DNA from: a phage
Length of the DNA: 46,310 nt
Assembly (NCBI GenBank): GCA_012455605.1
Contig: GCA_012455605.1_3618.2
Reading direction: 5' to 3' (one strand)
Shown: piece after piece, positions 13,701 to 40,398 of the stretch
Numbering within the stretch: the first letter of the stretch is position 1
Layout: the number at the start of each line of letters is the position of its first letter
The notes under the pieces: model-generated
Told to the model about the DNA's origin: nothing
Databases searched by the model: none
Seen by the model: only the letters and a program-made list of their open reading frames with translations
Translations under genes and position numbers: made by a program

Positions 13701-14555
13701 GGGATGGAAGGGTCTGGAGGCCAAGTTCAATCCTACTTCATGGTTAGCGCAAACAATTTTGCGGTATACAACCCTGGCAATGGAACAGCAACCCTTGCTT
13801 TCGCAATCAAGAACAACCAAGCGTTCTTGAAAGACGCTTTTATAGAGAATGGCACGATCTCCTCTGCCAAGATTGCACAAGAAATTTCGTCAAACAACTA
13901 CGATGGCAACGGGTACCATAAATACGGTTGGTATATTAACAAGAACGGGCACGCCCAATTTATGGATGTGTGGGTGAAAGGCAACATCAACGCCAGTTCT
14001 GGTAACTTCACAGGGGCAGTTAACGCCACTAGTGGTACCTTCCGTGGGGATGTTTATGCCAATAATGGTAGCTTTAGAGGCACCATAGATGCAACCGGAG
14101 GTACCTTCCGTGGTCGTGTAGAAGCTTCTGTTATCCGCGCTAACCAGTTCGAAGGTGCAATTGTTGCACACAGGACTTACGGAGATTGTGCTCCAGTATA
14201 TAACTCCCAGCAAAGGGTTTGCCGTTGGAGGTGGAGATACGTAGATAACGTTTCAGGTCAGGGTAAGAACGTAACATTCTTCTTTAAACTGAATGGTACT
14301 CTTGCCAGCTCCCAGCTTAACGTTTGGATAGCCGGACATCAAATCCTTGCAGGTAAGAAGTACGGAAACGACAACAACGGCATGTGTGCGGTAGGGATAA
14401 CGGGTCTTGGTGAACAAACCATAGATATTGTTGTTGAAATCTACACACCATGGTCAACGTCTTCTGTAACAGGGGTCGCAATATCCTGTCCTACTGTTGT
14501 GGTAAGCCGTTCTAACTCTAGTTTCCAAGGACCTTGGAACGAGTCTCACGACTAA
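10716..14555 (+). CDS. Tip attachment / central tail fibre protein, lambda gpJ-like
   Basis: 1279 aa. Multiple segments co-linear with lambda J as recalled: NNAALVILDYL (vs NNMAWCLWDML), FN3-like region, GYFAITLIPH / YDFWTS / YYWYIRTTNAFGSSQFVE, KYVAGIQLGMEG...QSYFMVSANNFAVYNPGNG, C-terminal GxFxG repeats (SGNFTGAVNATSGTFRGDVYANNGSFRGTIDATGGTFRG). Confidence 0.8.
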   Translation: MPIAMIDNIVASARSSSYDWNASKAALADSLNTVTTRTLDKIFEGNKSYRSQQDRQKLLRSSAAPCSVVYGKTRTSGLLAFLEQDSDRTLHCAIVLANHPLEGIEDILIDGNPISSYGDLVSWELHNDRKTSDPFMGTHCPSWSPDMIGRGISWLRASFRFDPNKFPFGLPNVTLVKIGKKCYDPRISKEVYTNNAALVILDYLRTYLKCPDETINWESFKEAANICDEAVKNADGTSERRYTINGEFDMDEAPASIMAEMLKACGADLSYVAGKYGLLVGAYYGPATMTLSEDCVCGEVKIYPEASFDKRSNTITGRFTSPTKGYSETDFPSVFVPEWIEKDGERKIIDIDYRFVTSPYQAQRVSAIFLRRARAGRIIEVTCNMRGFKFKPGRYVTMDLPSIGIVGQEMRVLEWEFTKKGGVKVKLRQDAKEWNDATGQLPDSGDVDIPISPSGVAQPQNFRYSVLQAGEVTHGVLAWDNVGTYAQNIVQVRKNGEIVWTAQTVEQFVRVEGLTKGSYTATVVATSYKGGVSPEAYCEFNIQAPEAPVSVEVKQGYFAITLIPHSRDLASVSTQYDFWTSGMTRLPDTSDATVTSNATRMGVGSTWTSEGLQNDKVYYWYIRTTNAFGSSQFVECAARCYTSIEDLMPQIDAEFKKTETYKELMSTLDSSIEEVENRVTELNRYMDGRVDEAFQQLGDRIGAVVTETTQKFEDVNGNITALDRKLVAAQNKFTNDLNTESGRLASLIETTNKATTDLLNKKTEALDEKLVAAKGELVEQIEGVESGYLAGDKTLDGKINTQRTELDASILSTNQATVDLLNRTSETLDQKISQTNATVSKNYTTLDGKITTAKTDLNTLIANTNKATTDLLNQKTSALSEQITSARGEISTNKQAIDALDGKLTSTKTALDATISDTNKATVDLINGTASAIRQELAVAKQEIIDDVGDVSEIRAAVATTSKAVTDLEGKVNAQWGTKIQVDSAGNKYVAGIQLGMEGSGGQVQSYFMVSANNFAVYNPGNGTATLAFAIKNNQAFLKDAFIENGTISSAKIAQEISSNNYDGNGYHKYGWYINKNGHAQFMDVWVKGNINASSGNFTGAVNATSGTFRGDVYANNGSFRGTIDATGGTFRGRVEASVIRANQFEGAIVAHRTYGDCAPVYNSQQRVCRWRWRYVDNVSGQGKNVTFFFKLNGTLASSQLNVWIAGHQILAGKKYGNDNNGMCAVGITGLGEQTIDIVVEIYTPWSTSSVTGVAISCPTVVVSRSNSSFQGPWNESHD
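12948..13640 (+). repeat. In-frame tandem repeats (~55-60 aa unit, 4-5 copies) encoding a coiled-coil stalk inside the J-like gene
   Basis: Repeating peptide pattern xTNKATTDLLNxKTxALxExIxxAxxEIxxxxxxLDGKIxxxKTxLD (ETTNKATTDLLNKKTEAL / STNQATVDLLNRTSETL / NTNKATTDLLNQKTSAL / DTNKATVDLINGTASAI). Confidence 0.6.
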
Positions 14556-27100: not shown

Positions 27101-29747
27101 ATCTATGTCTATGCAGATCCCAGTAACAAATGGGTACAAACGTGTTGTGATGATTATTAAGTGTGACTTAATAGGTAAACAAGTCCTTGCAGAAAACGGG
27201 ACCTCCACACATCCTTTTGAAATTGCTCTGCACTATCAGTTTGCTGACTCACCTTTTTCAGGAGATAAGAGAATATCTGATACAGATGCGCAGCGTTGTA
27301 AGAAGGTATTGTTGGGTGCAGGTTGGTGGTGGTATGAATTTGATTTAACAGACAAATTCACCGACACGTCAAAAGTTGTAACAGGACTTCGTCTAGACCT
27401 TGGCGAGAACATGCACAAAGCTGTTTGTGATGGCACCTATGGTGACCCTACAGTATATCTGAAGTATGTCTCTTTTGAGCATCCGGAAGATGTTGTTTAC
27501 GGTCCAAAACTGAGATTGTTTGGCAGTTGGATTGCAAAAGACAGGGTAGGCATGGGTAAAAAGGTAAGAGGGTTCTTGGTTGATGCAGGAACAGAAGACA
27601 TGCTGGTTAATGCAGTGTGGCCTGAATTACCTGGGACTCAGTGGGATAACTCAGCCAAGTCTATAAACTGGTTCAACATTCACAGAGCTATGTGGACCAC
27701 TAACTGCTATTTGTGGAGAGAGCTTAACGATCAGGCTTTTGGCTTCAGTAACGGCAGAAGGATGGCGATCATTTGCTGGACAACGCTGCAAAGATGTTAT
27801 GACCATGACTACGAGATTGGGGGCAGGGCATGGAAAAACATCAGGGATAGAATCATAACCAATTTTGCAGACGACAACGGCGGTGGAGCATATAACTTCG
27901 GCACAAGTAGACTTATTCACTTGAATGGGTCATCCGCGTATAAGAAAGAGGGTTACTCCGGATCCATGATCGAGTGGGGTCTGGTGAAAGATGCTCGCGT
28001 GCTGATGGGTCAACAACTTGCTGCTGCAATAGGTCCTAATGCAGTGCAATCTGTTAAACCTGCGTGGTTTGATATCCCATTGTGGTCATCCGGTACACCA
28101 GGAACTGCTGCAATCAACCCTACCACGGGGGATCTGGAAATCTCTTGGGAGGACTTGAAGCAGGTTGGAGGCTGGGATAAAACAGGGTATCAGGTCCAGT
28201 GGTGGAGGGCTGATGGATCTTTAGCCGCTGATGAGTTTGTTAAGGACAATTTCTACACCATGTCCTCTGCAAAAGCACAGCAATTATTTGGTCAGGCCAC
28301 TCCGTCAACGATCACCATGTCTATGTGCTGTAAAGACAACAGGACTGGAGCTTTGGGGCCAAGGGTTGCTAAGGTTTTCTCAGGTATTAAATGGAATCTC
28401 CCTGTTCAAAGTGTTTCATGGAAGCAAATAGGTGATAACAAGCTGCTGGTTACCCCTGCCTGTCAGTTCAACGCAACTCTTAACGTTGATCCTGCTGTTG
28501 CGGCAAACTCAGCTAAAGCTTCTGACTTCTCTGTGTCTAACACTGCTATGGCAGATGTGAGGAAGATTGACACACTGAACGCCAGAATTACCTGTAAAAA
28601 CACTTATGGCACATTCCAAATCATCAACAACTTCACAGATGCTGATTCTAAGGTAGTAAGGACAGCAAGCCAGACTCTGAGTTTAGGGACTCTGGCCTAT
28701 GCGGCCCTGATCACCGAACAGTCGGCAACACTCCAAGGAGGCGGTGCAGGCAAGTCCATTGCAACACCTGTGTGGAAGCCGAATGAGTGGGTTGTGTTTG
28801 ATTTGACTGTGGACTTCTCCAGTGATAATAACTGGACATGGGTAAGGAATTGTTTGTCACAGTTGATGGGCGGTCCAAGCTCCATTAGCGATAGTCACGA
28901 CTCTACTGACCCGAGCGTGTTCCAGGTGGGTAAAACTCACCCAGAGACTGGAGAAACGTTGCCTGACAGGAAGTATGCTTTGGTTTGCATCTCTTACGGG
29001 AAGGCAGATGTCACCTTCTCAGGGACACACACTTATAACGGAACCTACAACTTCTCAAGGAAGTATAGTCTCAAAGCAGGGAACATTGTAGACGAGGTTG
29101 GTGTGCTGTATAATCCAGGTAACGGCATAGGGATTGTGGGTGGTAAACTGCAGATGCAGGAACCTTCTATTACCCCTTCCAACGTATCCGGTATTAGAAA
29201 GACTTGGGAAAGTAGTAATACCAACATTGCAACAGTGGATGCTGCCACAGGGCTGGTAACATTTAAAGCTACTGGGAATGTCACCATAAAGTTTGTAGTT
29301 ACTGATGATGCAGGGCGCAAAACGTCTTCAACATCTTTTACTGTCAAACAGATGGCACCACAGTGGAGAATGTGGATAGGTACAGCAACAAACGGGGCAT
29401 ACCCTAATCCGGCAGGTACTTCTGGTATGAAGACTTTCTCTACAAGCAAACCGATGGAGTACGGCAGCGGTCCTAAGGTAGGGCAGATGGTGTACTTTGG
29501 TGCGTATATTCCTGAAATTATAGGGCTTCCTAGAAGTCAGCTTCAGTTGCTGTTTGGGGCTGGTGTTGACGATCTTGCCACTTTCGGGTATAGCGACAAC
29601 ATCGAGGCTGCAAGGAGTTCAGGATGGGTAGGGTTCAGAATGGAGTCTGGAAAGGAAGGCAGGATTCTAGGGACAGCCTCTATAGGTGTTATGTTCCCTG
29701 GTGACCAGCAGTATCGTCTAGAAGCCTACGCAACCTTTTCTCGTTAA
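24114..29747 (+). CDS. Giant virion/tail-associated protein (1877 aa) with C-terminal bacterial Ig-like (Big_2) domain
   Basis: Longest ORF in the window. Big_2-like segment ITPSNVSGIRKTWESSNTNIATVDAATGLVTFKATGNVTIKFVVTDDAGRKTSSTSFTV near the C-terminus. Last gene of the plus-strand structural block. Confidence 0.5.
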   Translation: MLPIPLLKLGRHFLDKRGGIKELAVLSYPIDNSDGTSNTVSYVNSLAILFDDGQLNITGYNRFGECRTGDLDTINYPNEAAWNVDHVWRADRAFVIRTFDNKFFYIGCTAGLIGSEAAGGNDVCVREWTPLPEQIVTGLHLDTHPERLVEVMGGVNNTVWVIAAPEADGMLHLYGSGNNTYGSLHVDKNQHATPVKIGETSENPETGPWKNPSINCEVHDNSVIFGGPRGFWIAGYDFLRNNSRNDLVWPPVQITRNDLRGIPADEEWKGFMCGPNGAIIATQRMHRPDDQQLVNVFYGQNIWGDDTWRELNITYTHEVIMARGYGTSGIFFNNGTKQYRGFSRNLCNDIGAQSANNSPRSDFIHYQALATAKYVEQRLPVSWTESVYFQGIHREGFLGTFTVVNGKLWWSGIPRGSFAGSNNLFGGRLNSQGFTEVPENWYKNVPVDSWGVDDIFDVNGVSSVSNIYIGDTVKMKLKPQPEGATFIIDKIELVNAAGTVVTDANYQFSTNWNHGGANEVVVTQYNRNVNRRGLYSVKITYHDKHGTGRTHTTRTLNWNTIVPAYPSDGKWHTVGRNKQFHVNDTVYFGLNGTQPAVEGDTSYMVRLHRMDAGSVTYDVTQEIYDQRRNTYNNLVQTQAVWEFNPNGRGGKMLQVNEQNGTSLTVHEHPDPWPDPGKPHPGARTLKIVSHDAGYFGIRWEATVRYADGTTNNIGITLGGTSEDNSLKIAYTPRGISIDNMDVVRNGYGDVNIKVTLGEHLGGERIIMYAFDHDPRTDGTYADQAWSYLISAPEPNTKEFYYGMKRDVCKKTGTHDWIAICVKDERTAWDEPVNRWFIGIPTRSDKYVEEYIVCMGGTNLNMCWNEDANKYSDYDYMRDYSCNQWFNQTGYANRQSRVNPAIFTDTQVFLTKQANEVQTFKNKYDPNKWFYNCYGAFFWGPGELPNGGSCFEASTYASDYIMGQVKKYKIIPGPETLGNAVDPYIIMTALRSNMDGTSMSMQIPVTNGYKRVVMIIKCDLIGKQVLAENGTSTHPFEIALHYQFADSPFSGDKRISDTDAQRCKKVLLGAGWWWYEFDLTDKFTDTSKVVTGLRLDLGENMHKAVCDGTYGDPTVYLKYVSFEHPEDVVYGPKLRLFGSWIAKDRVGMGKKVRGFLVDAGTEDMLVNAVWPELPGTQWDNSAKSINWFNIHRAMWTTNCYLWRELNDQAFGFSNGRRMAIICWTTLQRCYDHDYEIGGRAWKNIRDRIITNFADDNGGGAYNFGTSRLIHLNGSSAYKKEGYSGSMIEWGLVKDARVLMGQQLAAAIGPNAVQSVKPAWFDIPLWSSGTPGTAAINPTTGDLEISWEDLKQVGGWDKTGYQVQWWRADGSLAADEFVKDNFYTMSSAKAQQLFGQATPSTITMSMCCKDNRTGALGPRVAKVFSGIKWNLPVQSVSWKQIGDNKLLVTPACQFNATLNVDPAVAANSAKASDFSVSNTAMADVRKIDTLNARITCKNTYGTFQIINNFTDADSKVVRTASQTLSLGTLAYAALITEQSATLQGGGAGKSIATPVWKPNEWVVFDLTVDFSSDNNWTWVRNCLSQLMGGPSSISDSHDSTDPSVFQVGKTHPETGETLPDRKYALVCISYGKADVTFSGTHTYNGTYNFSRKYSLKAGNIVDEVGVLYNPGNGIGIVGGKLQMQEPSITPSNVSGIRKTWESSNTNIATVDAATGLVTFKATGNVTIKFVVTDDAGRKTSSTSFTVKQMAPQWRMWIGTATNGAYPNPAGTSGMKTFSTSKPMEYGSGPKVGQMVYFGAYIPEIIGLPRSQLQLLFGAGVDDLATFGYSDNIEAARSSGWVGFRMESGKEGRILGTASIGVMFPGDQQYRLEAYATFSR

Positions 29748-29760
29748 CAAGGGGGTAAAT

Positions 29761-29793
29761 AAAAAAAGGGGCCGTTTGGCCCCTTTCTTTTTA
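29761..29793. terminator. Bidirectional intrinsic terminator between convergent blocks
   Basis: A7-GGGGCC-gttt-GGCCCC-TTTCTTTTTA: perfect 6-bp GC stem flanked by A-run upstream and T-run downstream, between plus gene ending 29747 and minus gene ending 29797. Confidence 0.85.
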
Positions 29794-29796
29794 TAG

Positions 29797-29997
29797 TTAG
29801 TAATACTCCCAACATGCCCCATCTTCAGACGGCTTGACGCGCTTACCTTTATGGTCAACATAGGTATAGCCACAACCTTCACAAATAACAGGTGCTGCAT
29901 AGCCTTCCTTCCACTGATCCTCAGTGATCAGACCTTCCAAATCTTTGCAGTCAAAGCCAAACAACTCTTCAGAGCAATCTTTACAAAAATCAGCCAT
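29797..29997 (-). CDS. Small zinc-ribbon protein
   Basis: 66 aa with CxxC...CxxC (CKDC ... CEGC) spacing; ATG with GAGGA RBS; last gene of the minus-strand cassette. Confidence 0.5.
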   Translation of the reverse strand: MADFCKDCSEELFGFDCKDLEGLITEDQWKEGYAAPVICEGCGYTYVDHKGKRVKPSEDGACWEYY

Positions 29998-30000
29998 TTA

Positions 30001-30447
30001 TCAGTCCTCGCATTTAACAAATTTTTCTACAGATCCACCAAGCACAGCTTGTTGTTTGATGGCACTTTCTTCATCATAGTGGATAGACTTATGTTCCGTA
30101 CCTCCAAACTTACCTGTGTGGAAGGTGTGCACCCAAATCTCTTTAGGAAGGGATTTATTCTCTTCTTCCACCAACTCCCACATTCCCCATAAGTGATCTG
30201 TGATATCTCTGATGAAATATCCCTCGCCGAGGTTTGTATTCACACTATAAGCTGATTCGTGATCTCCACAAATATAACGGAAGGCGGTGTACTCTTTCCC
30301 TGGCGTGAAGTGGGTATCCATTAGTATAGCTGTTAAAGAATTAGGGTCTCGAAATCCCAAAAACTTTAGTTTAACAATTTCGACGTTCACATTTGCAAGA
30401 TTATCCATGACGATCTCCCCTGTTTGGTTGGTGAGATAATCATACAT
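30001..30447 (-). CDS. Hypothetical protein
   Basis: 148 aa ORF; its stop is adjacent to the start of the Zn-ribbon gene; no family recognised. Confidence 0.5.
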   Translation of the reverse strand: MYDYLTNQTGEIVMDNLANVNVEIVKLKFLGFRDPNSLTAILMDTHFTPGKEYTAFRYICGDHESAYSVNTNLGEGYFIRDITDHLWGMWELVEEENKSLPKEIWVHTFHTGKFGGTEHKSIHYDEESAIKQQAVLGGSVEKFVKCED

Positions 30448-30545
30448 AGATCTGATGTTGGGGTCAAGCTTAATTTTAAACGATTTTGGGGAGGTATTTT
30501 GTTCAGGAGGGTAATCACATAAGGTAGGGCAATTTATGAAGGCAC

Positions 30546-30563
30546 AGGCCTCGTTTGAGGCCT
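30546..30563 (-). other. Intergenic stem-loop without U-tract
   Basis: AGGCCTC-gttt-GAGGCCT perfect 7-bp stem, 10 nt downstream of the stop of gene 30573-30953 on the minus strand. Confidence 0.4.
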
Positions 30564-30572
30564 TAAAACAGA

Positions 30573-30953
30573 TTATGACGCTTTGACGTAGCGCTCTGAC
30601 AAAGCTGGGAAGCCAAAAGCAGCACCTACACTACCGTACGCTATCCACCATTGAAGTTCATCGTGACACCATTTTCCGATCAGAAAGGTGCTTGGGTAGC
30701 GGGTCAGTATTTTGGCATAAGCTTTAGGGTCTGCATCTTCTGGGATAATGATGCTTGGAACATCTTTGTTGTGACCACAGCAGCAGTTTAGAGTTTTCAA
30801 TCCTGCTGCCCATAGACTCATAATAGGCTTAACCATGCACTTATCAAGGCACACACGTTTTTTGCCGTCACGGAGCTTTTTAGGCACATCAACGATAACA
30901 TTTGGATGCTTGGCACCTTTCACTTTCCAATTATAGGATTTACACTTGCACAT
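30573..30953 (-). CDS. Cys-rich putative zinc-binding protein
   Basis: 126 aa; MCKCKSY...CLDKC...NCCCGHN cysteine clusters; GGAG RBS 9 nt upstream of ATG. Confidence 0.5.
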   Translation of the reverse strand: MCKCKSYNWKVKGAKHPNVIVDVPKKLRDGKKRVCLDKCMVKPIMSLWAAGLKTLNCCCGHNKDVPSIIIPEDADPKAYAKILTRYPSTFLIGKWCHDELQWWIAYGSVGAAFGFPALSERYVKAS

Positions 30954-31080
30954 TTAATCAGTCTCCGTCTAGAAAGCTATGTAACTAAAAATGACGCACA
31001 AAACTACCTAGCAATGCAATCTTATACCTGCGGTGAGTTAAGTGCGCTGCAGGGGCTCCTGTTGCGTTTTAAGTCATATC

Positions 31081-31251
31081 TTACTTAAAGTCTTTATCAC
31101 CTGCCACGATTGCATGAATCCACTCATTGTGATGCTCAATAGCGGTGAGATGTAGCATGATGTAGTGATCGTCATTGCCAAACATGGTATGATAGGCTTT
31201 GGCAGCATTTTGATATAACTTCCACATCAGGTAATGATATCTTCGCCTCAT
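31081..31251 (-). CDS. Small His-rich protein (56 aa), absent from the ORF track
   Basis: Hand translation of the minus strand gives MRRRYHYLMWKLYQNAAKAYHTMFGNDDHYIMLHLTAIEHHNEWIHAIVAGDKDFK. ATG lies 5 nt after the stop of the HAD-like gene, GGAG 8 nt upstream; fills an otherwise ~300-bp gap. Confidence 0.35.
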   Translation of the reverse strand: MRRRYHYLMWKLYQNAAKAYHTMFGNDDHYIMLHLTAIEHHNEWIHAIVAGDKDFK

Positions 31252-31256
31252 GGCTC

Positions 31257-31721
31257 TTACTCCGGTTCAGGATCTGGGTAATCTTCAATAATAAAGGGCC
31301 ATCCGTTCCGCTTAGCCTCAGACTTATACTCGATCTCCTTCATTGCAAACTCTAACTGATTCTTAGCCGGAATACATGCCGGAGAATCATCAATCCAGAT
31401 ATCTGGGTAGATATCAAACTGCGCCAGATAGGCTGCCTTCTGAACACCACCAGTATAAAACACACCAACATTGAGCTCCTTGCGCCAATACTCGATGTCT
31501 ACATTGTCTTGAGTAATGAATCGGAAAGTCACAAGGTAGACTGTCCACCCCTCTTTCTTCAGATCCCTGATCAGGCGGGAGAAGATGAAAGGGCTCGCAT
31601 TAAACGTTCCATCAAAGTCAATGGCAATGATGTGCGTGCCGTGGCGAGTCTCATATGGATTGCTTGTGGTAAGATTGCTGTAGTTAAAAGGGACCTCTTC
31701 CCCGCAGTAGCTGTAGTCCAT
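31257..31721 (-). CDS. HAD-superfamily hydrolase (phosphatase/nucleotidase-like)
   Basis: Motif I IIAIDFDGT, Thr in VYLVTF, Lys in GGVQKAAY, motif IV IWIDDSP. Start set at ATG 31721 (track GTG at 31727 overlaps upstream stop). Confidence 0.6.
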   Translation of the reverse strand: MDYSYCGEEVPFNYSNLTTSNPYETRHGTHIIAIDFDGTFNASPFIFSRLIRDLKKEGWTVYLVTFRFITQDNVDIEYWRKELNVGVFYTGGVQKAAYLAQFDIYPDIWIDDSPACIPAKNQLEFAMKEIEYKSEAKRNGWPFIIEDYPDPEPE

Positions 31722-31723
31722 AT

Positions 31724-31999
31724 TCACACCTTCTCGTTGATAAATTTACGGGCGGTTTGGTGAGTTGTTTCTGCTGTCTTCAGAATAATATTAATTTTAT
31801 CGTCAAGATCATTCATCTCAGCAGTTAATTCAGGAATCTCTCCGGCATGCATAGTGAAATCATACATAGACATGCCCAGAATCTCATTGATGCGACGGTT
31901 GCATTCTGCAGCACGCTGGTTCATTTTCCAAGCTAACACCAAAGCCTCCTGCGTAGCCTCTAGTGCAAAATCTAATACGTCGGCCTCTTCTTTCGTCAT
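31724..31999 (-). CDS. Hypothetical protein
   Basis: 91 aa, AGGAG RBS 8 nt upstream of ATG; coupled to the HAD-like gene. Confidence 0.5.
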   Translation of the reverse strand: MTKEEADVLDFALEATQEALVLAWKMNQRAAECNRRINEILGMSMYDFTMHAGEIPELTAEMNDLDDKINIILKTAETTHQTARKFINEKV

Positions 32000-32054
32000 C
32001 TCAGTTTCTCCTGTTGTATTGTTGGTAGGTGTATGAATACCTTATATCTCACTT

Positions 32055-32621
32055 TTATTCAAACTGCAATAGCAAGTCCACCACCGCACTAGGCCTGTCA
32101 ACAAATTCCCCAGGCCCACATGCCCATAGAGGGTATCCATCAACATACCGCCATATCCAACCTGCAGTGTGAAGCTCAAGCAGGGCAGTGCCGTCCTTAC
32201 TGTCAACCACCCTTTCCCACAGTGTTGGGCAGCGAAGCTTGAGAATCGGGTCCCCGCCCTTATACCCATCCATGTAGATACCCATTGCAAAGTTCAGCAT
32301 CATCTTTTTGTGCACTGATCTCTTACTGAGGGTGCTCATCACTTCCTCTTTGTGAATGTTTGTAAGCTTCTCTTTGGCTACCCGCAGATCATTGCAACCA
32401 TTGTTCAGCAGATCTTCCAGACACTTGATCCGAAGGTCGTGAATGTCTTTGTCGTGTACAGTTGGCACGGGGTCGTAGCGGTATAGCACCGTTGATACAA
32501 GGTTGCTCGGGTGTGGGTCTGACAGCAACCCATAGCCCCAATACTCTTCTGTATCTGAAAGGACAAGACACCCAATGTCTCTGTCAAGCTTTCCTGTGTT
32601 GTAAGCCACATTGACCGCCAT
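32055..32621 (-). CDS. Hypothetical protein
   Basis: 188 aa ORF with GGAG RBS; no family recognised. Confidence 0.5.
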   Translation of the reverse strand: MAVNVAYNTGKLDRDIGCLVLSDTEEYWGYGLLSDPHPSNLVSTVLYRYDPVPTVHDKDIHDLRIKCLEDLLNNGCNDLRVAKEKLTNIHKEEVMSTLSKRSVHKKMMLNFAMGIYMDGYKGGDPILKLRCPTLWERVVDSKDGTALLELHTAGWIWRYVDGYPLWACGPGEFVDRPSAVVDLLLQFE

Positions 32622-32623
32622 GA

Positions 32624-32869
32624 CTATAGCTCCACTAGCAAAGTGCTTTCAAAGTGCCGTTCATGCAAACCGTTGTAAGGGACCACTTCCACAACGCCAT
32701 CACGGACATATGGGGCCATCATGGTGGTATAATCTCCAAACGGGTTGGTATTGTCACTAACCACAACCACCTTCTGCCCTTCCTTGGCAGAGTGCCAAAT
32801 AGATCTGCACTTCATCAGGTGTTCGAGAGCCCCAGGTAAAATTTTGTTACGTTCTTTACGGGTCTTCAT
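32624..32869 (-). CDS. Hypothetical protein
   Basis: 81 aa; start overlaps upstream stop (ATGA). Confidence 0.45.
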   Translation of the reverse strand: MKTRKERNKILPGALEHLMKCRSIWHSAKEGQKVVVVSDNTNPFGDYTTMMAPYVRDGVVEVVPYNGLHERHFESTLLVEL

Positions 32870-33315
32870 AACAGGTATAGCTCCTTATGAAAGTAGTCTT
32901 TTAATTTCTCACTGAGAAACTTCTTGATACCTTCCTCTAAAGTGTTTTCGATGTAGTCCAGCTTAACTGCTTCGATGGACATATCATAGATCGCCAGCTC
33001 TAAGCTGTCAAGTCCCATCATAGCATGAACCATAAGATTTTCATCTTCAGATACATTCAGGGGACTTCCTATAACATCCGTAGGGAGGATAGTTTCCCAA
33101 TTATTCTGGGGGGTAGTTCTCCCGCCATCCACTTTACGGCGCAGTTCGAAGGTGTTCTTAGTGTAGAACACTTCATAAGAAACGATACGACTATCGCTCT
33201 CATAATAAACGAAGTTCAGGTAGGAGCCTAGCCGCAGTCGGCAAACTTCTACCCCAAACCATTGTTTCTTATAAGAATTCAGGCTAATGCTGTCACATTC
33301 ACGTTTGCTCAACAC
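32866..33315 (-). CDS. Hypothetical protein
   Basis: 149 aa; GTG start 6 nt after AAGGAG. Confidence 0.45.
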   Translation of the reverse strand: MLSKRECDSISLNSYKKQWFGVEVCRLRLGSYLNFVYYESDSRIVSYEVFYTKNTFELRRKVDGGRTTPQNNWETILPTDVIGSPLNVSEDENLMVHAMMGLDSLELAIYDMSIEAVKLDYIENTLEEGIKKFLSEKLKDYFHKELYLL

Positions 33316-33330
33316 GGCTCTCTCCTTTTG

Positions 33331-33564
33331 TTAATCTTCGTAAATCAGGATTTCTGCTTTAGGTTTTCGTGCTTTCAGGTCCAGCTCTATCCAGTGCACC
33401 ATAGCTGTTTCAAGAAAAACAGCTTGGATGCATCCGTCCTCAGCGTGCCCCACCAACATAACAAGATCTTCACCTTCGTCATCTGCATCACGAATATACA
33501 GAATCTCTCCAGATTCAAAGTCTTTCACAACCTGATTGCTGGATAATTTACGAATTTTTGCCAT
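33331..33564 (-). CDS. Hypothetical protein
   Basis: 77 aa; ATG 1 nt after upstream stop; acidic. Confidence 0.45.
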   Translation of the reverse strand: MAKIRKLSSNQVVKDFESGEILYIRDADDEGEDLVMLVGHAEDGCIQAVFLETAMVHWIELDLKARKPKAEILIYED

Positions 33565-33565
33565 A

Positions 33566-33829
33566 TCAGAAACCCTCTAAAAAGCTCTTGTAGAAAATAA
33601 TTTCAGTGTCCACACCTGTCACGATCTTATCGTTTCGGATCTCATCTGTGAGGTAGGTGTCAAAACGCAGAACCTGTGTGGTGTTGTCACACATCCACTC
33701 AGCTGTGACCATTGCGAAAATCTTAGCATCTTCATTATCTGGTGTGAATGTTACCACCTCACCACACTTAAACTTTTCGATAGGTTGAGTGTTGGCTTTC
33801 GGTTCTGCGATAGTGATTTTTGTGGTCAT
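33566..33829 (-). CDS. Hypothetical protein
   Basis: 87 aa; TAATG overlap with upstream gene. Confidence 0.45.
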   Translation of the reverse strand: MTTKITIAEPKANTQPIEKFKCGEVVTFTPDNEDAKIFAMVTAEWMCDNTTQVLRFDTYLTDEIRNDKIVTGVDTEIIFYKSFLEGF

Positions 33830-34095
33830 TACTCTTCCTCCATAGTTTCACCAAATACTTCGATACGAGCATCGAGCTCGGTTGCTTTCAGCTCCCCAAC
33901 AAAATCTTTTAGTTCTTTCTCGTCCAGATCGTAAGCCCACACACAAGAAGAACATGCAGATTTCACAATCAGCAGCGTAGATATACGGCCTGACTCCGTG
34001 ATCATGCTCACAATGGTTCCTACAGGGAACGTGTTGATAGCTTTTTTAACTGGGCGTTCAGCTTTGATTACTACCTCTGTTGTCATAAATAACAT
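33829..34095 (-). CDS. Hypothetical protein
   Basis: 88 aa; alternative in-frame ATG at 34086 has better RBS spacing. Confidence 0.4.
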   Translation of the reverse strand: MLFMTTEVVIKAERPVKKAINTFPVGTIVSMITESGRISTLLIVKSACSSCVWAYDLDEKELKDFVGELKATELDARIEVFGETMEEE

Positions 34096-34101
34096 CCTCT
34101 C

Positions 34102-35562
34102 TTACTTAGCGTACTCGATTAATTCCACAGTTTTCCCAAAGCTCGGAATATAATTTTTATTATACCCTTCGGTGAGAACCCATAGAGTATCGTACTTTTT
34201 CCACTTGTTGTCAACAGCCTTTTGTTCAAAGTTATGCTCAAAGTATAGGTCGGTCAGGACGATGACATCTTTTGCATTCGGTATGTTAGCATCCAGATAC
34301 TCGAACACGCAAGCAGCTGTTGTGCCCCATGTTGAGTGGACCTCATAGTTAATCATCTTGTCTATGTTGCCGCGAGTGTATACTTTAACCTCTCCAACCT
34401 CAGTTGACCAACAGAACATTGTAACCTTAAACTCTTTATACAGATTGCACAATCCGGTGATTTCATTGAACATTTTCTTTAAAGTTCTTTGAGAGATCGA
34501 GCCAGAAACGTCTAAAGCCACCACAATATCTATAGTGTTTTCCGGATTACGACCAGGAACAATAACGTGCTGGTTCTTGTTTATAGCCCCAACTTTTCGC
34601 ATTGTGCTGGTCAAAGACCCAGATCGGCGACCAGGTTTTCTGTAGGTCAGTTCAGCCTTTCGTTTAGACAACATGCGTTGCTTAATGATGTCTATATAGT
34701 TGATTACAGGCTTACCTCTGTTCTTGACAAACTCACGCACCGCCTCAGGGCAACGGCCTCCGGACGCTTGCATTGCTGCCTCCAGCATATCACCAGAGTC
34801 CTGCATGGCCTGATCTTTATCAGATTGGCTGATTACAGGTTGTGGCTGATCATACCCCATAGCTTTTCCAAGATCATCACTAGTGCCACCGTTACCACTC
34901 ATGTGATCGTCGGTTTGTCGTTTATCTCCTTGAGAGTTCTTGCCTTTACCGTTCTTACTTTTACCGCTATTCTGATCTCTTTGCTTATCAAGAACCGCAT
35001 AGACGTTCTCAGCAATCCATCCATGGAACCTCATGTCACAGTAGCAACTAGCTAAGAATCCAAAAGGCTTACCTTTCACGAACGTAGTGCTTTTCCCCTT
35101 CGGGAAGAAAACACAAGGAGGCTTGCTAAAGTCAACCACAAGACCTGTGTTGATAACGTGATCACAAGCAATATTGAACAGTTCCGGCTCAAAGCTTTTA
35201 CCACGGACCAGGTGATCACAGATAATATGCCCCACCTCATGTGACAGAAGGAAGGCCACCTCTTTCACAGATTTTGGGGAATAGAAAACTTCAGCCATCT
35301 CAAACTGCTCGTCAGTTAGAGAAGCCTTAAGAATAGTCTTGCGTTCATCAGCCAATCCCATAATGAACTCAGGACTGTAATAAATGCGTTTATGGTCGGT
35401 TGCCATGGTGGAGCACCATGTGTGGTTTTCTACGAACTGCAACCCTGACAGTAGTGTGCCATAAAACGGCAGCTTTTCAAGGAGATACATACGTGCAGCC
35501 TGTAACATTCTCAGGGCATCATCTTTCTGTGAGGCAATGATTTCTGAACTTCTGCTATCCAT
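34102..35562 (-). CDS. VWA-domain protein with N-terminal HExxH metallopeptidase-like domain (DUF2201-type)
   Basis: HEVGH at 35227-35241 (minus); VWA MIDAS motif ALDVSGSIS at ~34501-34530, downstream Thr and VIVLTDLYFE. Central Gly/Ser/Lys/Asp-rich linker. Start set at ATG 35562 (GGAG 5 nt upstream); track TTG start at 35583 sits in a hairpin. Confidence 0.7.
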   Translation of the reverse strand: MDSRSSEIIASQKDDALRMLQAARMYLLEKLPFYGTLLSGLQFVENHTWCSTMATDHKRIYYSPEFIMGLADERKTILKASLTDEQFEMAEVFYSPKSVKEVAFLLSHEVGHIICDHLVRGKSFEPELFNIACDHVINTGLVVDFSKPPCVFFPKGKSTTFVKGKPFGFLASCYCDMRFHGWIAENVYAVLDKQRDQNSGKSKNGKGKNSQGDKRQTDDHMSGNGGTSDDLGKAMGYDQPQPVISQSDKDQAMQDSGDMLEAAMQASGGRCPEAVREFVKNRGKPVINYIDIIKQRMLSKRKAELTYRKPGRRSGSLTSTMRKVGAINKNQHVIVPGRNPENTIDIVVALDVSGSISQRTLKKMFNEITGLCNLYKEFKVTMFCWSTEVGEVKVYTRGNIDKMINYEVHSTWGTTAACVFEYLDANIPNAKDVIVLTDLYFEHNFEQKAVDNKWKKYDTLWVLTEGYNKNYIPSFGKTVELIEYAK

Positions 35563-35595
35563 TAAAACTCCAGAAGGGGCCAATGGCCCCTGTCA

Positions 35596-36636
35596 TTATT
35601 TAACGTGTTTGAAAATACCTGCCAACTCGGTCATTGTCATGCGGGTGGTCTTCATAAGATCTGTCATAGCTTTCTCCATAATTGGAGATACTACCATAAA
35701 GTTTCCTTTAGTGAAACCTTTATTCCAGTCGGTCACCAACAGTGGTTTAAGTCCAGATCCGAGACGTTCACCAGTTAAAGCACAGCATTTGCGAATATAC
35801 GAACTCTTAAATTGGCTGAACGACAGATCAACTTTCATACCTGCATCGTAGAACGTTTGACAATAGAAAGTGTAAGCCTTAGCAATCTCAACATCATCAG
35901 GCAGTGCAGGAACTTCTTCTGCAATCTCCTCTTCGACCTCCTGAGGCTCTTTTTCCTCTTCAGAGTTCTGTTCTTCAATTTCTTCTGTCACAGTCTCGTT
36001 TACGATGTCTGAAATGTGTTTGTTGGCTGCACGATCAGCCATGAAATTTTTAAAGTCCTGCATTGGTGACATATCTTCCTCCTCTTCGTCAAATAGTGCT
36101 AGTTTATCTTCCTCTGTCCCGTATTGCAAGATGAAGTCTTCAAAAGTATAATCACCTTTCAATTTCTCCATACGCTCTTCGCTCAGGTGGAGCATCATCT
36201 GCTGGACAATTTTTCTATCAGTTTTGTCTTTTATCAAGATTGCAGTCTTTTTATCTACCAGACAGTCCTTCAGAGCGTTGCACCTCAATCCCACCACACA
36301 ACAATTATCAATTGAGTAAGGACCTTCATCATCTATCCGCTCTAGGGAGGGGTAGAAAGGATTTCCCAATCCGTTTTCATCTGTGTGCATGTCAAAAGGT
36401 ATAAGGGTATAGTCGCATACTCCATCTCCTAAAAGTTTTTTACCAAATAGGAGGTATTCTTCCCATGACAGGTCGAACTCTATATCCCGTTTCCGTGCAT
36501 TATTCTGTTTGCGTCTATATTTTTTGAGCAGGCGCTCTAACTCTTCTGGTGTATAATATTTTTCAAGATTCATGAGTTGTCTCTCGTGCTCTGTAAGTGA
36601 AGAAATCGTATCAATTGTCTTAACAGATGTCAACAT
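35596..36636 (-). CDS. HNH-like domain protein with tandem duplicated domain and acidic linker
   Basis: First copy DIEFDLSWEEYLLFGKKLLGDGVCDYTLIPF...PSLERIDDEGPYSIDNCCVVGLRCNALK matches the phage HNH pattern (..F.L..EE...CxYxG...PSLDRIDN.KGY...N...CC..CN..K). Second, degenerate copy VDLSFSQF...KCCALTGERL...PLLVTDWNKGFTKGNFMVV. Glu-rich low-complexity segment between. First gene of the minus block. Confidence 0.5.
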   Translation of the reverse strand: MLTSVKTIDTISSLTEHERQLMNLEKYYTPEELERLLKKYRRKQNNARKRDIEFDLSWEEYLLFGKKLLGDGVCDYTLIPFDMHTDENGLGNPFYPSLERIDDEGPYSIDNCCVVGLRCNALKDCLVDKKTAILIKDKTDRKIVQQMMLHLSEERMEKLKGDYTFEDFILQYGTEEDKLALFDEEEEDMSPMQDFKNFMADRAANKHISDIVNETVTEEIEEQNSEEEKEPQEVEEEIAEEVPALPDDVEIAKAYTFYCQTFYDAGMKVDLSFSQFKSSYIRKCCALTGERLGSGLKPLLVTDWNKGFTKGNFMVVSPIMEKAMTDLMKTTRMTMTELAGIFKHVK

Positions 36637-36651
36637 CAAAAACGTGTTGAC
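36629..36651. promoter_or_regulatory. Inverted repeat in divergent control region
   Basis: GTCAACA-tcaaaaacg-TGTTGAC (7-bp arms, 9-nt spacer) covering the start codon of minus gene 35596-36636 and overlapping the -35 of the plus-strand promoter. Confidence 0.4.
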
Positions 36652-36675
36652 TTTACTCTAAATCTCCGATATAGT
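36647..36675 (+). promoter_or_regulatory. sigma70-like promoter TTGACT-17-TATAGT for the plus-strand operon
   Basis: -35 TTGACT 36647-36652, 17-nt spacer, -10 TATAGT 36670-36675; about 40 nt upstream of RBS/ATG of gene 36716. Confidence 0.6.
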
Positions 36676-36715
36676 GCACCCATTCGAAAGAAAACTAACA
36701 TAGGAGCACCCACTC

Positions 36716-37615
36716 ATGGCAAATCTTAACAGTTTTAGTACTCGGTGGAAACAGGACATAACAACCAATCTTTCAGCTGGGGACATCCTTTCTGCAATTT
36801 ACGAGGCTTTAGATGATAAAGCTACTTCAAAATCGGTTTGTACCAACCCGTTAATTCCTATGGTAATGAAGGTGATTGAGCGTAGGTTGGTATCTGGGTC
36901 TGATAAGTGGACATATTTAGATAATGAAGGACACACCTATTCCAATGGGTATGTCGATATAAAAGTAGAATACGCGGTATCATACCGCCGAAGCGGTTCT
37001 GTGACTTTCAACTTTTCTGGAGGTTTCAGATCTCTGGCAACTTCACCTTTTGTTTCCTCAGAAGAGAAGTTTGAACTTCCGTTCCTTTGGATGATGGCTA
37101 ACGCGACAGGAAAAACCCCAGTGAGCATTCGCGTAAAATACAACTACAACGGATCTAGTAAGATCTATGCCGAAAGTGTCTCAGCAAGTTTTTATTTTGT
37201 GATGGGCGATGGAATCCTCAAACATATAAAGATGTGCGATATGCATGATGTTATAAATGAAGTGACTGATAAGAATGTTCTAGTGAAAGACCTCAACAAT
37301 TTTTATACACCCGGAGACTATTACGTCAACCGTCCACTGTGCATCTTTAATGCTGCACACCCTCTAGGTGAGTATTTGATTGCCAATAGTGATATTGCCA
37401 ATAACCGCTTCGAGGTAGCAAGAGTACAGAATGAGGTGTTGACATCTTGCAAGAGCGGTGATAAGTTTACCGAAGAAGAGATGGGTGTTTTAGAGATGAT
37501 GGGATATAAGTGTAGCCTTTGGGTAGATGAGGTGTTTAATGACGGCATCTATGGACAGGATATTTACCCGTTAAAGAAGTATACTGATTCCAGTTTAATT
37601 TACGCGGAGATTTGA
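36716..37615 (+). CDS. Hypothetical protein
   Basis: 299 aa, AGGAG RBS 8 nt upstream; first gene of plus operon. Confidence 0.55.
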   Translation: MANLNSFSTRWKQDITTNLSAGDILSAIYEALDDKATSKSVCTNPLIPMVMKVIERRLVSGSDKWTYLDNEGHTYSNGYVDIKVEYAVSYRRSGSVTFNFSGGFRSLATSPFVSSEEKFELPFLWMMANATGKTPVSIRVKYNYNGSSKIYAESVSASFYFVMGDGILKHIKMCDMHDVINEVTDKNVLVKDLNNFYTPGDYYVNRPLCIFNAAHPLGEYLIANSDIANNRFEVARVQNEVLTSCKSGDKFTEEEMGVLEMMGYKCSLWVDEVFNDGIYGQDIYPLKKYTDSSLIYAEI

Positions 37616-38944: not shown

Positions 38945-39214
38945 ATGTTATACCAGCAGTACGAACTTCGTGCAGAAAAAGAATTAAATTTTGACAAAGA
39001 TATCCACAGATATTATTATGGGAAAGTTAGAGGGCAATCAAGAAAGTGTACTCCAACACTCTTTTATGCCAGCAGACGACTAGCTCCAGAAGAGGCAACA
39101 GCAGAAAGGGTTGCATATGGCTGGAGAGTTGCGTATGATATTGACAGATCCGATGTGATGTCTGTTTTGGAAAACTTTGAAAACACTTACACACAAGTAG
39201 AGGACTTTTACTAA
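38945..39214 (+). CDS. Hypothetical protein
   Basis: 89 aa; AAGGAG RBS; stop overlaps start of ATPase gene (TAATG). Confidence 0.5.
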   Translation: MLYQQYELRAEKELNFDKDIHRYYYGKVRGQSRKCTPTLFYASRRLAPEEATAERVAYGWRVAYDIDRSDVMSVLENFENTYTQVEDFY

Positions 39215-40398
39215 TGTCAAGAAACGTATTCGAAAGTGGTCAAATCACTGTCCGCGAGTTGCCAGCTATTATTCAATTTGCCCAGCGTCATAACCGATCT
39301 GTCCTGATTTTAGGACCGATGGGTGTGGGGAAGAGTCAGGTGATGAAGCAGATTGCTGATAATATGTTCGGTGAGCGAGATGACAACCTGGTTGACGTGC
39401 GGCTGTCAGATAAAGATCCTGCTGACCTATCTGGACTACCTATCCCTGTAGAGGCAGATGGAACTACACGCACAGTGTTTGCAATTCCAGAATTTTGGCC
39501 TGCAGACTCGGACTGGAGCGGAATTATCTTTCTGGATGAGCTTACTCATGCAGATAACTACCTGCAGAAGGTTGCAATGCAAATTATGCTCGACCACAAG
39601 TGCGGCACCTATGCATTTCCTAAGGGCTCTGTTTTTGTAGCTGCAGGTAACCGTGCTACAGATGGTGCTGTTCTTTCAGCGCTCGAAGCTCCTCTGGCTA
39701 ACCGCTTTATCATTGTAGAAGTTACAAGCAATGCAGAGGTATTTATTGAGGACTACGCATTCCTTAATGGTGTGCATTCCTCTGTAATTGGATATCTGAA
39801 AAGAGTTCCATCAGCTATCGATAATTATGAGGCTATGGCTGAGATTAATTGTCCGTCTTTTGCCACACCGCGATCTTGGGTTGCTGCATCTGACATCCTG
39901 CACGATTTTGACAGCGGTATTATTTCTGACGCTATGGCTCGTGTTCTTCTGCAAGGTGCTATTGGTCACACTGCAGCGGTAGAAATCTGGACCTACCACA
40001 CCAAGAAACGAAACTTGCCAGAAATCGGTCGGATTATGGCAGGGGGTTGCAAAGAATATGTAGGTCCTAAGCAGCCAGATATCTTGTGGATTCTTGGGTC
40101 TGAAGGTTGTATTGCTATTCGGAATATGATGGAAAATGCAAGTGTCTCAGACGAAGATCTTGTTAGCTGCGTGGCAAACTTCCTCGATTTCCTTTGGGAA
40201 AATTTCAAAGATGAAAACCGAGACTTTGTATTCTCAGTCTTTATGGCGATGATGAAGCCCAACGCCCTGGGAAATGCCTTACTTATTGGTAAAGGCCGGG
40301 ACAAGATCGTTGCTCAGCTGATCAAAGCATATCCAAACCTGATGAAGATTGTAAAAGAGTTTGGTGAAGAGTTTAGCGCCATTTTAGCTAAAGCTTGA
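39214..40398 (+). CDS. AAA+ ATPase, MoxR/AAA_5-like
   Basis: Walker A LILGPMGVGKS (39313-39336), Walker B IIFLDELTHA, sensor region VFVAAGNRATDG, and ALEAPLANRF matching the AAA_5 C-terminal signature. Confidence 0.7.
   Translation: MSRNVFESGQITVRELPAIIQFAQRHNRSVLILGPMGVGKSQVMKQIADNMFGERDDNLVDVRLSDKDPADLSGLPIPVEADGTTRTVFAIPEFWPADSDWSGIIFLDELTHADNYLQKVAMQIMLDHKCGTYAFPKGSVFVAAGNRATDGAVLSALEAPLANRFIIVEVTSNAEVFIEDYAFLNGVHSSVIGYLKRVPSAIDNYEAMAEINCPSFATPRSWVAASDILHDFDSGIISDAMARVLLQGAIGHTAAVEIWTYHTKKRNLPEIGRIMAGGCKEYVGPKQPDILWILGSEGCIAIRNMMENASVSDEDLVSCVANFLDFLWENFKDENRDFVFSVFMAMMKPNALGNALLIGKGRDKIVAQLIKAYPNLMKIVKEFGEEFSAILAKA

Follow-up and report, generated by a model that had tools for sequence, protein, structure and literature searches.

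A conserved minus-strand gene block in a Vequintavirus genome segment: probable correspondence to the rV5 transcription unit 11-26

A phage contig of 46,310 nucleotides (nt) (GCA_012455605.1_3618.2 of NCBI GenBank assembly GCA_012455605.1; this whole stretch is called the window below) carries a block of mostly short minus-strand genes between positions 29797 and 36636. An initial annotation, made from the letters and the open reading frames (ORFs) alone, described the block as an accessory cassette and took it for a region of early host takeover or counter-defence. The question is hence which unit this block represents, and which role its genes are likely to have. We suggest that it is probably "genes 11-26", a transcription unit of non-structural genes in rV5-like (Vequintavirus) coliphages.

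Judged by its sequence, the whole window is a segment of a Vequintavirus genome. A DNA search with the region 29700-36750 matched 122 phage records, among them Escherichia phage rV5 (V5) and the BASEL phages, and in 114 of these at least 80% of the region lay within one match at 90-99% DNA identity. Collinear orthologues of ORFs 11-26 were found between the ORF27 fibre gene and ORF10 with 100% query coverage, 96-97% DNA identity and the order kept. Four transcription units have been proposed for rV5 (DQ832317), one of them being "11-26", and the bidirectional terminator and bidirectional promoters of this unit were given in the same work (Kropinski et al. 2013, Virol J 10:76; PMC3606486). As the block equals rV5 ORFs 11-26, the arrangement noticed in the initial annotation is correct and has been published before; the block is already known, cleanly delimited and conserved within the genus. 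Its conservation can be directly observed at the protein level as well. All 14 proteins matched PHROG families (E 1e-33 to 1e-135), the orthologues, where present within Vequintavirus, share 80-100% protein identity in the genomes compared, and the ratio of nonsynonymous to synonymous polymorphism (pN/pS) against six other genomes was 0.01-0.19 for each of the 14 genes, which is purifying selection. It should be mentioned that 16 records labelled "Campylobacter phage" (MG0656xx) are 95-97% identical to E. coli Vequintavirus across the block; these host labels look doubtful.

The limits of the block are given by three signals, which are in accordance with the flanking terminator and divergent promoter noted in the initial annotation:

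29761-29793, both strands: bidirectional intrinsic terminator AAAAAAA-GGGGCC-GTTT-GGCCCC-TTTCTTTTTA, the rV5 t026/t027 (rV5 Table S4)
36633-36605, minus strand: sigma-70 promoter of the block, TTGACA-17-(TG)-TACGAT with an upstream TG, the rV5 P011
36647-36675, plus strand: divergent sigma-70 promoter TTGACT-17-TATAGT, the rV5 P010, driving the unit with MoxR, endolysin and rIIA

The terminator is perfect, folds with -20.6 kcal/mol on the minus strand and -18.2 kcal/mol on the plus strand, and has a stem that is invariant in seven genomes while the loop differs. The genomes differ in this loop (29774-29777), with GTTT in one part of them and AAAC or AGAC in the rest, so that it appears flipped between lineages. 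At the other end the two sigma-70 promoters stand back to back (36605-36675). Each agrees with the consensus at 10 of 12 positions, and the hexamers of both are almost unchanged in seven Vequintavirus genomes. A perfect palindrome, GTCAAC-N11-GTTGAC (36629-36651), has the two -35 boxes as its arms and could be a shared operator site.

Within these limits about 15 small coupled minus-strand genes had been counted. The contiguous block was found where it had been placed, and the count was corrected to 14, here numbered g01 to g14 from the terminator towards the promoter (the original rV5 annotation arrives at 16 genes by adding the overlapping ORFs 13 and 23). The orientation is indeed opposite to that of the neighbours. 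GC skew is below zero in all seven 1-kb windows of 30001-37000 and above zero in all other 39, and as the skew flips over the same windows, the strand switch is a compositional signal and not merely a result of ORF calling. From g14 to g01 the gaps at the junctions, with revised starts, are 33, 15, -1, 1, 15, -4, 2, 55, 2, 5, 127, 164 and 3 nt. The tight coupling described earlier thus holds for nine of the 13 junctions, which measure 15 nt or less, and true stop/start overlaps number two. Three of the longest-ORF starts in the mechanical ORF list overrun real signals. For g14 the start is ATG 36573, as in the AlexBoehm annotation, the listed TTG 36639 lying upstream of the promoter; for g13 it is ATG 35562 behind a GGAG, the listed TTG 35583 being inside a hairpin; and for g02 it is ATG 30408, the listed ATG 30447 overlapping a -10 box. 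Three further signals lie inside the block:

30467-30439, minus strand: internal sigma-70-like promoter TTGACC-17-TATGAT upstream of g02, the rV5 P025
30546-30563, minus strand: GC-rich hairpin AGGCCUC-loop-GAGGCCU directly after the g03 stop, -13.1 kcal/mol
35575-35591, minus strand: GC-rich hairpin between g14 and g13, -14.0 kcal/mol

The hairpin behind g03 has an invariant stem and a variable loop in seven genomes, and may act as a terminator or processing site. The one between g14 and g13 is nearly invariant in the same number of genomes and is a possible partial terminator or attenuator. An Rfam scan of the block and its spacers returned no family. The block is not one uniform operon; because of the two conserved hairpins and the one internal promoter we suggest a division into the likely sub-units g14, g13-g03 and g02-g01.

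The first gene of the unit is related to T4 Srd:

35596-36573, minus strand: g14 (ORF11), 325 amino acids (aa), T4 Srd family by PHROG and BLASTP, two degenerate HNH-like domains with an acidic linker

The protein matched phrog_4592 ("decoy of host sigma70") with 3e-14 and phrog_1400 ("Srd anti-sigma factor") with 6e-9, and by BLASTP it aligned to T4 Srd itself over aa 8-143, the N-terminal domain, with 24% identity and E 1e-6. It also cross-matched phrog_1035 (endonuclease VII; 4e-11) and a PHROG family named endonuclease (4e-14). A full HMMER search yielded 321 representative relatives, most of them 230-330 aa long with two matched stretches. In an alignment of 92 members the N-domain and C-domain profiles match each other (hhalign probability 97.9%, E 3e-13), and hence the Srd family, T4 Srd included, appears to have arisen by tandem duplication of a single degenerate HNH-like domain. 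The duplication is visible by profiles only, as a direct BLAST of the N-domain against the C-domain within g14 was not significant, and no mention of it was found in the literature searched.

The initial annotation had called one of the proteins HNH-like, which seems right as ancestry at most. As to a relationship with the beta-beta-alpha-Me fold, the best PDB match of the 92-member profile is the HNH enzyme PacI at a borderline E of 0.098, the Cys motifs are degenerate, and none of the 92 members matched a Pfam HNH model. In the weak PacI alignment and the family consensus CGYCG has become CdYTg and CN-x-x-K has become aN-x-x-K, so that most Cys positions of PacI, the paired Cys ligands of HNH, lack a counterpart in the g14 domains. 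The consensus PSxERID sits at what we take to be the position of the catalytic His in canonical HNH enzymes. As a statement of function the RefSeq label "HNH endonuclease" is probably wrong for g14. T4 Srd, according to the accounts of Qi et al. (2015) in PMC4980113 and PMC13232886, binds RNase E at its catalytic (N-terminal) half and accelerates the decay of host mRNA.

Further, three genes seem to belong together, one of which lies outside the block:

34102-35562, minus strand: g13 (ORF12), 486 aa, N-terminal zincin and C-terminal VWA, DUF2201_N + DUF2201
39214-40398, plus strand: MoxR-type AAA+ ATPase (rV5 ORF4 in the rV5 annotation), outside the block, presumed partner of g13
32866-33315, minus strand: g09 (ORF17), 149 aa, candidate third partner of MoxR and VWA by a homology chain and synteny

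The earlier label VWA/metallopeptidase was confirmed for g13, which carries DUF2201_N (PF13203; 5e-28) with the zincin motif HEVGH and DUF2201 (PF09967; 2e-11), a VWA domain with the metal ion-dependent adhesion site (MIDAS) DVSGS. When all or most proteins were scanned with Pfam, NCBIfam and PADLOC, g13 alone matched a curated family. Its homologues are spread over 626 phage records, N4-like phages (N4 gp25) and Rak2/121Q-like jumbo phages among them. The VWA gene adjoins and follows a MoxR-type ATPase gene in the phi92-like UPEC06, in Cronobacter phage CR9 (Certrevirus) and in 121Q, and in the N4-like G7C it follows the ATPase gene with one HNH gene inserted between them. The MoxR ATPase of the window shares 35-50% identity with the ATPases of SSE121, UPEC06 and CR9, whose genes lie beside the VWA gene or in its vicinity. 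Here, the adjacency and co-orientation are lost, as MoxR lies about 3.7 kb from g13 on the opposite strand, and in the Seunavirus SSE121 the two genes are likewise on opposite strands across a divergent promoter region. This shared layout in Vequintavirus and Seunavirus would imply an ancestral inversion. We presume that g13 is an N4 gp25-like co-chaperone and that its partner is the MoxR ATPase from the divergent unit.

The g09 protein was connected step by step to SSE121 gp113 (1e-12), UPEC06_371 (3e-4) and CR9_128 (2e-26). In these three other Vequintavirinae genera a g09-family gene stands immediately after the VWA gene, while in the window g09 lies 0.8 kb downstream of g13 with g12, g11 and g10 in between. 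The g09-family genes of the three other genera lie at 13406-13792 (L003), 13567-13890 (L004) and 13551-13940 (L005). We take g09 as a possible third member of the MoxR/VWA module. A scan of viral contigs with the g09 alignment gave only three more loci. The PHROG label of its family, "tail protein", is unsupported, rV5 gp17 being without a label from mass spectrometry (MS) evidence.

To see which part of the block is shared more widely, the 14 proteins were searched by tblastn against the whole genome of SSE121, which represents the nearest other genus, and only g14, g13, g09 and g05 were detected; the other ten of the 14 genes are absent from it. The 25-kb neighbourhoods of UPEC06 and CR9 contain only g13 of the cassette. 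Within the genus, gene content varies at two positions, as the comparison with related phages recommended in the initial annotation brought out, and the other 12 genes do not vary. At slot A (g02) other genomes have truncated or alternative versions along with extra genes (phrog_12630 in 30 records and phrog_16603 in 3), and at slot B (g12) there is one copy here and in 44 records two tandem copies about 40% identical to g12. The block is thus neither accessory throughout nor an invariant core in all relatives, being near-invariant within the genus save for two slots and largely missing from the nearest genus. From these sequence comparisons it is built of core and accessory layers: an old Vequintavirinae backbone of g14, g13, g09 and g05, ten short proteins, and the two slots.

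An early role of the block in host takeover is plausible. This part of the initial annotation finds agreement in the sigma-70 promoters, in the Srd-like first gene, and in the distribution of the late-type motif TGGTAAAATA, which with one mismatch allowed is matched 11 times in the window, where 4.3 matches would be expected. The structural region 1-29000 holds ten of the matches, nine being on the plus strand, and none is found upstream of any cassette gene; the one match in the block falls inside the g14 coding sequence. Moreover, none of rV5 gp11-26 has a structural-protein label with MS evidence in the rV5 annotation, and the divergent unit carries rIIA and endolysin. While the anatomy, the conservation, the purifying selection and the homologies of the block are direct results, the early timing and the takeover role of g14 we infer from these features, as would be any function given to the ten ORFans.

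The unit might work as follows. Host sigma-70 RNA polymerase would start at the promoter standing back to back with that of the MoxR/endolysin/rIIA unit, read the 14 mostly closely spaced genes, and end at the bidirectional terminator shared with the incoming tail-fibre operon, the two hairpins and the internal promoter presumably splitting the unit into g14, g13-g03 and g02-g01. By homology to T4 Srd, g14 would most likely bind a host protein (RNase E in T4) and thereby bring about faster decay of host mRNA. The zincin and VWA co-chaperone g13 would have the MoxR ATPase from the divergent unit as its partner, g09 would probably act with both, and g05 would be a small HAD-type phosphatase.

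Several points weigh against such an early takeover unit. Our literature search found no transcriptome for Vequintavirus-type phages and no other expression data, so "early" comes down to promoter type, and sigma-70-like promoters occur across the whole rV5 genome (Kropinski et al. 2013; PMC3606486). As g14 has only 24% identity to T4 Srd, and this in the N-terminal domain, its target may be a different one. In G7C and 121Q only a few genes separate the ATPase-VWA pair from genes of nucleotide metabolism, and a virion-assembly role has been proposed for the MoxR and zincin-VWA pair (Iyer et al. 2021; PMC7824862). Ten of the 14 proteins (all but g14, g13, g09 and g05) are without recognisable function, and the models of g03 and g07 were uninformative.

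Three other explanations of the block were weighed. If it were a counter-defence island, most of the small ORFs would be early-expressed inhibitors of host anti-phage systems. In accordance with this, the promoter of the unit is of sigma-70 type, the ten ORFans, seven of which are acidic, belong to no known family, and ten of the 14 genes are missing from the nearest genus; further, the two slots differ in gene content among near-identical genomes, as in accessory regions (bioRxiv 10.1101/2023.04.06.535777). We nevertheless find this explanation unlikely, and this claim of the initial annotation was not borne out. No characterised anti-defence family was matched in PHROGs, Pfam or NCBIfam, PADLOC gave no credible match, the host-takeover category of PHROG holds g14 only, and g13, g14 and g05, which are among the largest genes, are in broad families not known to act against defence. 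The high protein identity and the low pN/pS values are not the pattern of an arms race. In addition, Vequintavirinae were exceptionally sensitive to restriction-modification systems in the BASEL study (PMC8594841), and the Vequintavirinae phage Bas50 is blocked by several other defence systems (PMC13463889). In our literature search no gene-level anti-defence work on Vequintavirus was found.

The genes could also assist morphogenesis, with the MoxR/VWA-zincin pair and possibly g09 as assembly chaperone and processing protease for the adjacent tail-fibre apparatus and the small genes as helpers. The proposal of Iyer et al. for the jumbo-phage pair, made by analogy with an archaeal virus tail, speaks for it, as do the position of the block next to the 1877-aa immunoglobulin-like (Ig-like) fibre gene and the PHROG name of the g09 family. 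Taken as an explanation of the whole block it is very improbable, since the block is on the strand opposite to the fibre operon with a sigma-70 promoter of its own, its genes have neither a late-type motif upstream of them nor, in rV5, an MS-based structural label, the Srd-VWA block lies away from the tail module in Seunavirus, and the pair has nucleotide-metabolism neighbours in G7C and 121Q; for g13 and g09 we would keep the assembly-chaperone idea as a live alternative. These same neighbours, dCTP deaminase and ThyX near the N4-like gp24/gp25 pair and thymidylate synthase near the 121Q pair, could point to a block supporting nucleotide metabolism or replication, along with g05, the HAD-type phosphatase candidate with some homologues annotated as 5'-nucleotidase. 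Such a function has hardly any likelihood, as only one of the 14 genes resembles a small-molecule enzyme and none matched a characterised replication or nucleotide-metabolism family. Beyond this we speculate on two readings, both rather doubtful: the slot genes (the g02 module family, the phrog_12630/phrog_16603 inserts and the g12 paralogues) might include at least one new defence inhibitor, or MoxR, g13 and g09 might form a three-part machine for remodelling or cleaving some host complex in the course of takeover, which would not be concerned with virion assembly.

We thus retain the non-structural rV5-like unit, with a plausible early role, as the preferred reading, in which g05 is the fourth backbone gene:

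31257-31727, minus strand: g05 (ORF21), 154-156 aa, candidate minimal HAD-type phosphatase by its HAD motifs

The motifs D37-x-D39-x-T41 (DFDxT), T67, K97 and D113-D114 are invariant in five sequences down to 43% identity, which agrees with the HAD label of the initial annotation; the sequence models of Pfam, NCBIfam and PDB fail to recognise the protein, as g05 gave no Pfam match at E <= 1, no NCBIfam match and no PDB match by sequence or profile. Homologues are present in 339 phage records, some annotated as HAD-like, 5'-nucleotidase or polynucleotide kinase. As a separate observation, the rV5 genes 80-82, which lie outside the window, encode, next to one another, a metallophosphoesterase, an AAA_33 kinase and an Rnl1-type RNA ligase (rV5 Table S3). 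This set has the look of RNA repair, and as a counter-defence candidate it would be more concrete than any gene of the block. Because rV5 has this separate set, we consider it unlikely that g05 supplies the phosphatase half in a T4 Pnk-like pathway of RNA repair.

The ten ORFans are the following:

29797-29997, minus strand: g01 (rV5 ORF26), 66 aa, acidic, Zn-ribbon-like CxxC...CxxC; phrog_2210 (1e-36), pN/pS 0.12
30001-30408, minus strand: g02 (rV5 ORF25), 135 aa, two modules, polymorphic slot A; phrog_30425 in the N-terminal part
30573-30953, minus strand: g03 (ORF24), 126 aa, basic, 8 Cys; conserved motifs MCKCKSYN and CCCGH
31081-31251, minus strand: g04 (ORF22), 56 aa, least constrained in the block; phrog_12006, 80-96% protein identity, pN/pS 0.19
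31724-31999, minus strand: g06 (ORF20), 91 aa, acidic; weak sub-threshold matches to coiled-coil families, pN/pS 0.03
32055-32621, minus strand: g07 (ORF19), 188 aa, among the two most constrained; phrog_12232, pN/pS 0.01
32624-32869, minus strand: g08 (ORF18), 81 aa; phrog_4868, pN/pS 0.06
33331-33564, minus strand: g10 (ORF16), 77 aa, acidic; phrog_12046, pN/pS 0.09
33566-33829, minus strand: g11 (ORF15), 87 aa, acidic; phrog_12861, pN/pS 0.01
33829-34095, minus strand: g12 (ORF14), 85-88 aa, acidic, polymorphic slot B; phrog_10698

The Zn-ribbon and Cys-rich labels given earlier can both be read from the sequence, g01 having two CxxC pairs (6 Cys in 66 aa) and g03 being the Cys-rich protein. 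The g01 gene has about 70% DNA identity to Felixounavirus genes and is the sole cassette gene with DNA-level matches to phages outside Vequintavirinae, which suggests transfer between myovirus groups with common hosts. The C-terminal 45 aa of g02 matched phrog_3955, 11192 and 36005. The profile searches called for in the initial annotation gave families for g13 and g14 and left ten genes without recognisable function; for g02, g04, g06, g08 and g10-g12 no family was found beyond phage-only PHROGs without a function label. Word-indexed homologue searches gave 5 close relatives for g05, 11 for g03 and 3 for g07. The structure model of g03 (predicted local distance difference test, pLDDT, of 63) had no fold match, the AlphaFold model of g07 (pLDDT 47) was too poor to use, and single-sequence and profile searches of PDB for g05, g03 and g14 yielded solely the borderline PacI match of the Srd profile. 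Paralogy among g08 and g10-g12 was ruled out, as all-against-all BLAST gave nothing significant.

Most of the 6.8-kb block is annotated as hypothetical or mislabelled in the records compared. Public records name g13 "HNH endonuclease", g09 "tail protein", and g13 as well as g14 "anti-sigma factor", and ORF10 (36716-37615) is labelled "alpha-1,3-fucosyltransferase" with no match in Pfam, NCBIfam or the functionally annotated PHROGs; the annotations of g13, g09 and ORF10 appear to be wrong. The present map is cleaner, with corrected starts, sub-units, ancient backbone genes and two varying positions, and with its help an anti-defence screen could be limited to a handful of the 14 genes. The two polymorphic slots and the MoxR/VWA/g09 trio are the leads of most use. 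If confirmed, the tandem pair of degenerate HNH-like domains in Srd and the g09-family gene after the MoxR-partner VWA gene across Vequintavirinae would be of wider use. There is also a practical value, though a modest one, as few therapeutic E. coli phages are isolated more often than the rV5-like ones.

Compared with known systems, the block resembles anti-defence hotspots such as the early regions of T4 and T7 in its sigma-70-type promoter, its short and mostly acidic ORFs and its two positions of gain and loss, and differs from them in that most of it is invariable within the genus and no member has an anti-defence function shown or deduced from homology. With T4 Srd, g14 shares the motif C-x-Y-[ST]-G ... 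S-L-E-R-x-D ... G-Y-x-x-N and the position as first gene behind a sigma-70 promoter, whereas T4 Srd has 248 aa and g14 has 325 aa with a long acidic linker. T4 Srd was first proposed as a sigma-factor decoy and is an RNase E activator; RNase E binding by g14 would be by analogy only.

The N4 gp24/gp25-type pair, also present in Rak2/121Q-like phages, agrees with the genes found here in DUF2201_N + DUF2201, in the HExxH and MIDAS motifs and in a MoxR ATPase within the genome. These pairs are adjacent and co-oriented (with one inserted gene in G7C), while those of the window and of Seunavirus are on opposite strands, and a g09-family gene after the VWA gene is seen in Vequintavirinae only, unlike in the N4-type and jumbo-phage pairs. 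The closest system is the rV5 unit 11-26 itself. It has a g04-g03 spacer of about 50 nt, compared to 127 nt here (30954-31080; a 76-nt indel without any Rfam match or obvious ORF in the spacer), its terminator loop is AAAC where the window has GTTT, and later annotations omit its additional ORFs 13 and 23, which are overlapping calls. In all else listed it is the same unit, with identical gene order, 96% DNA identity, the terminator t026/t027, the promoters P010/P011 and the internal P025.

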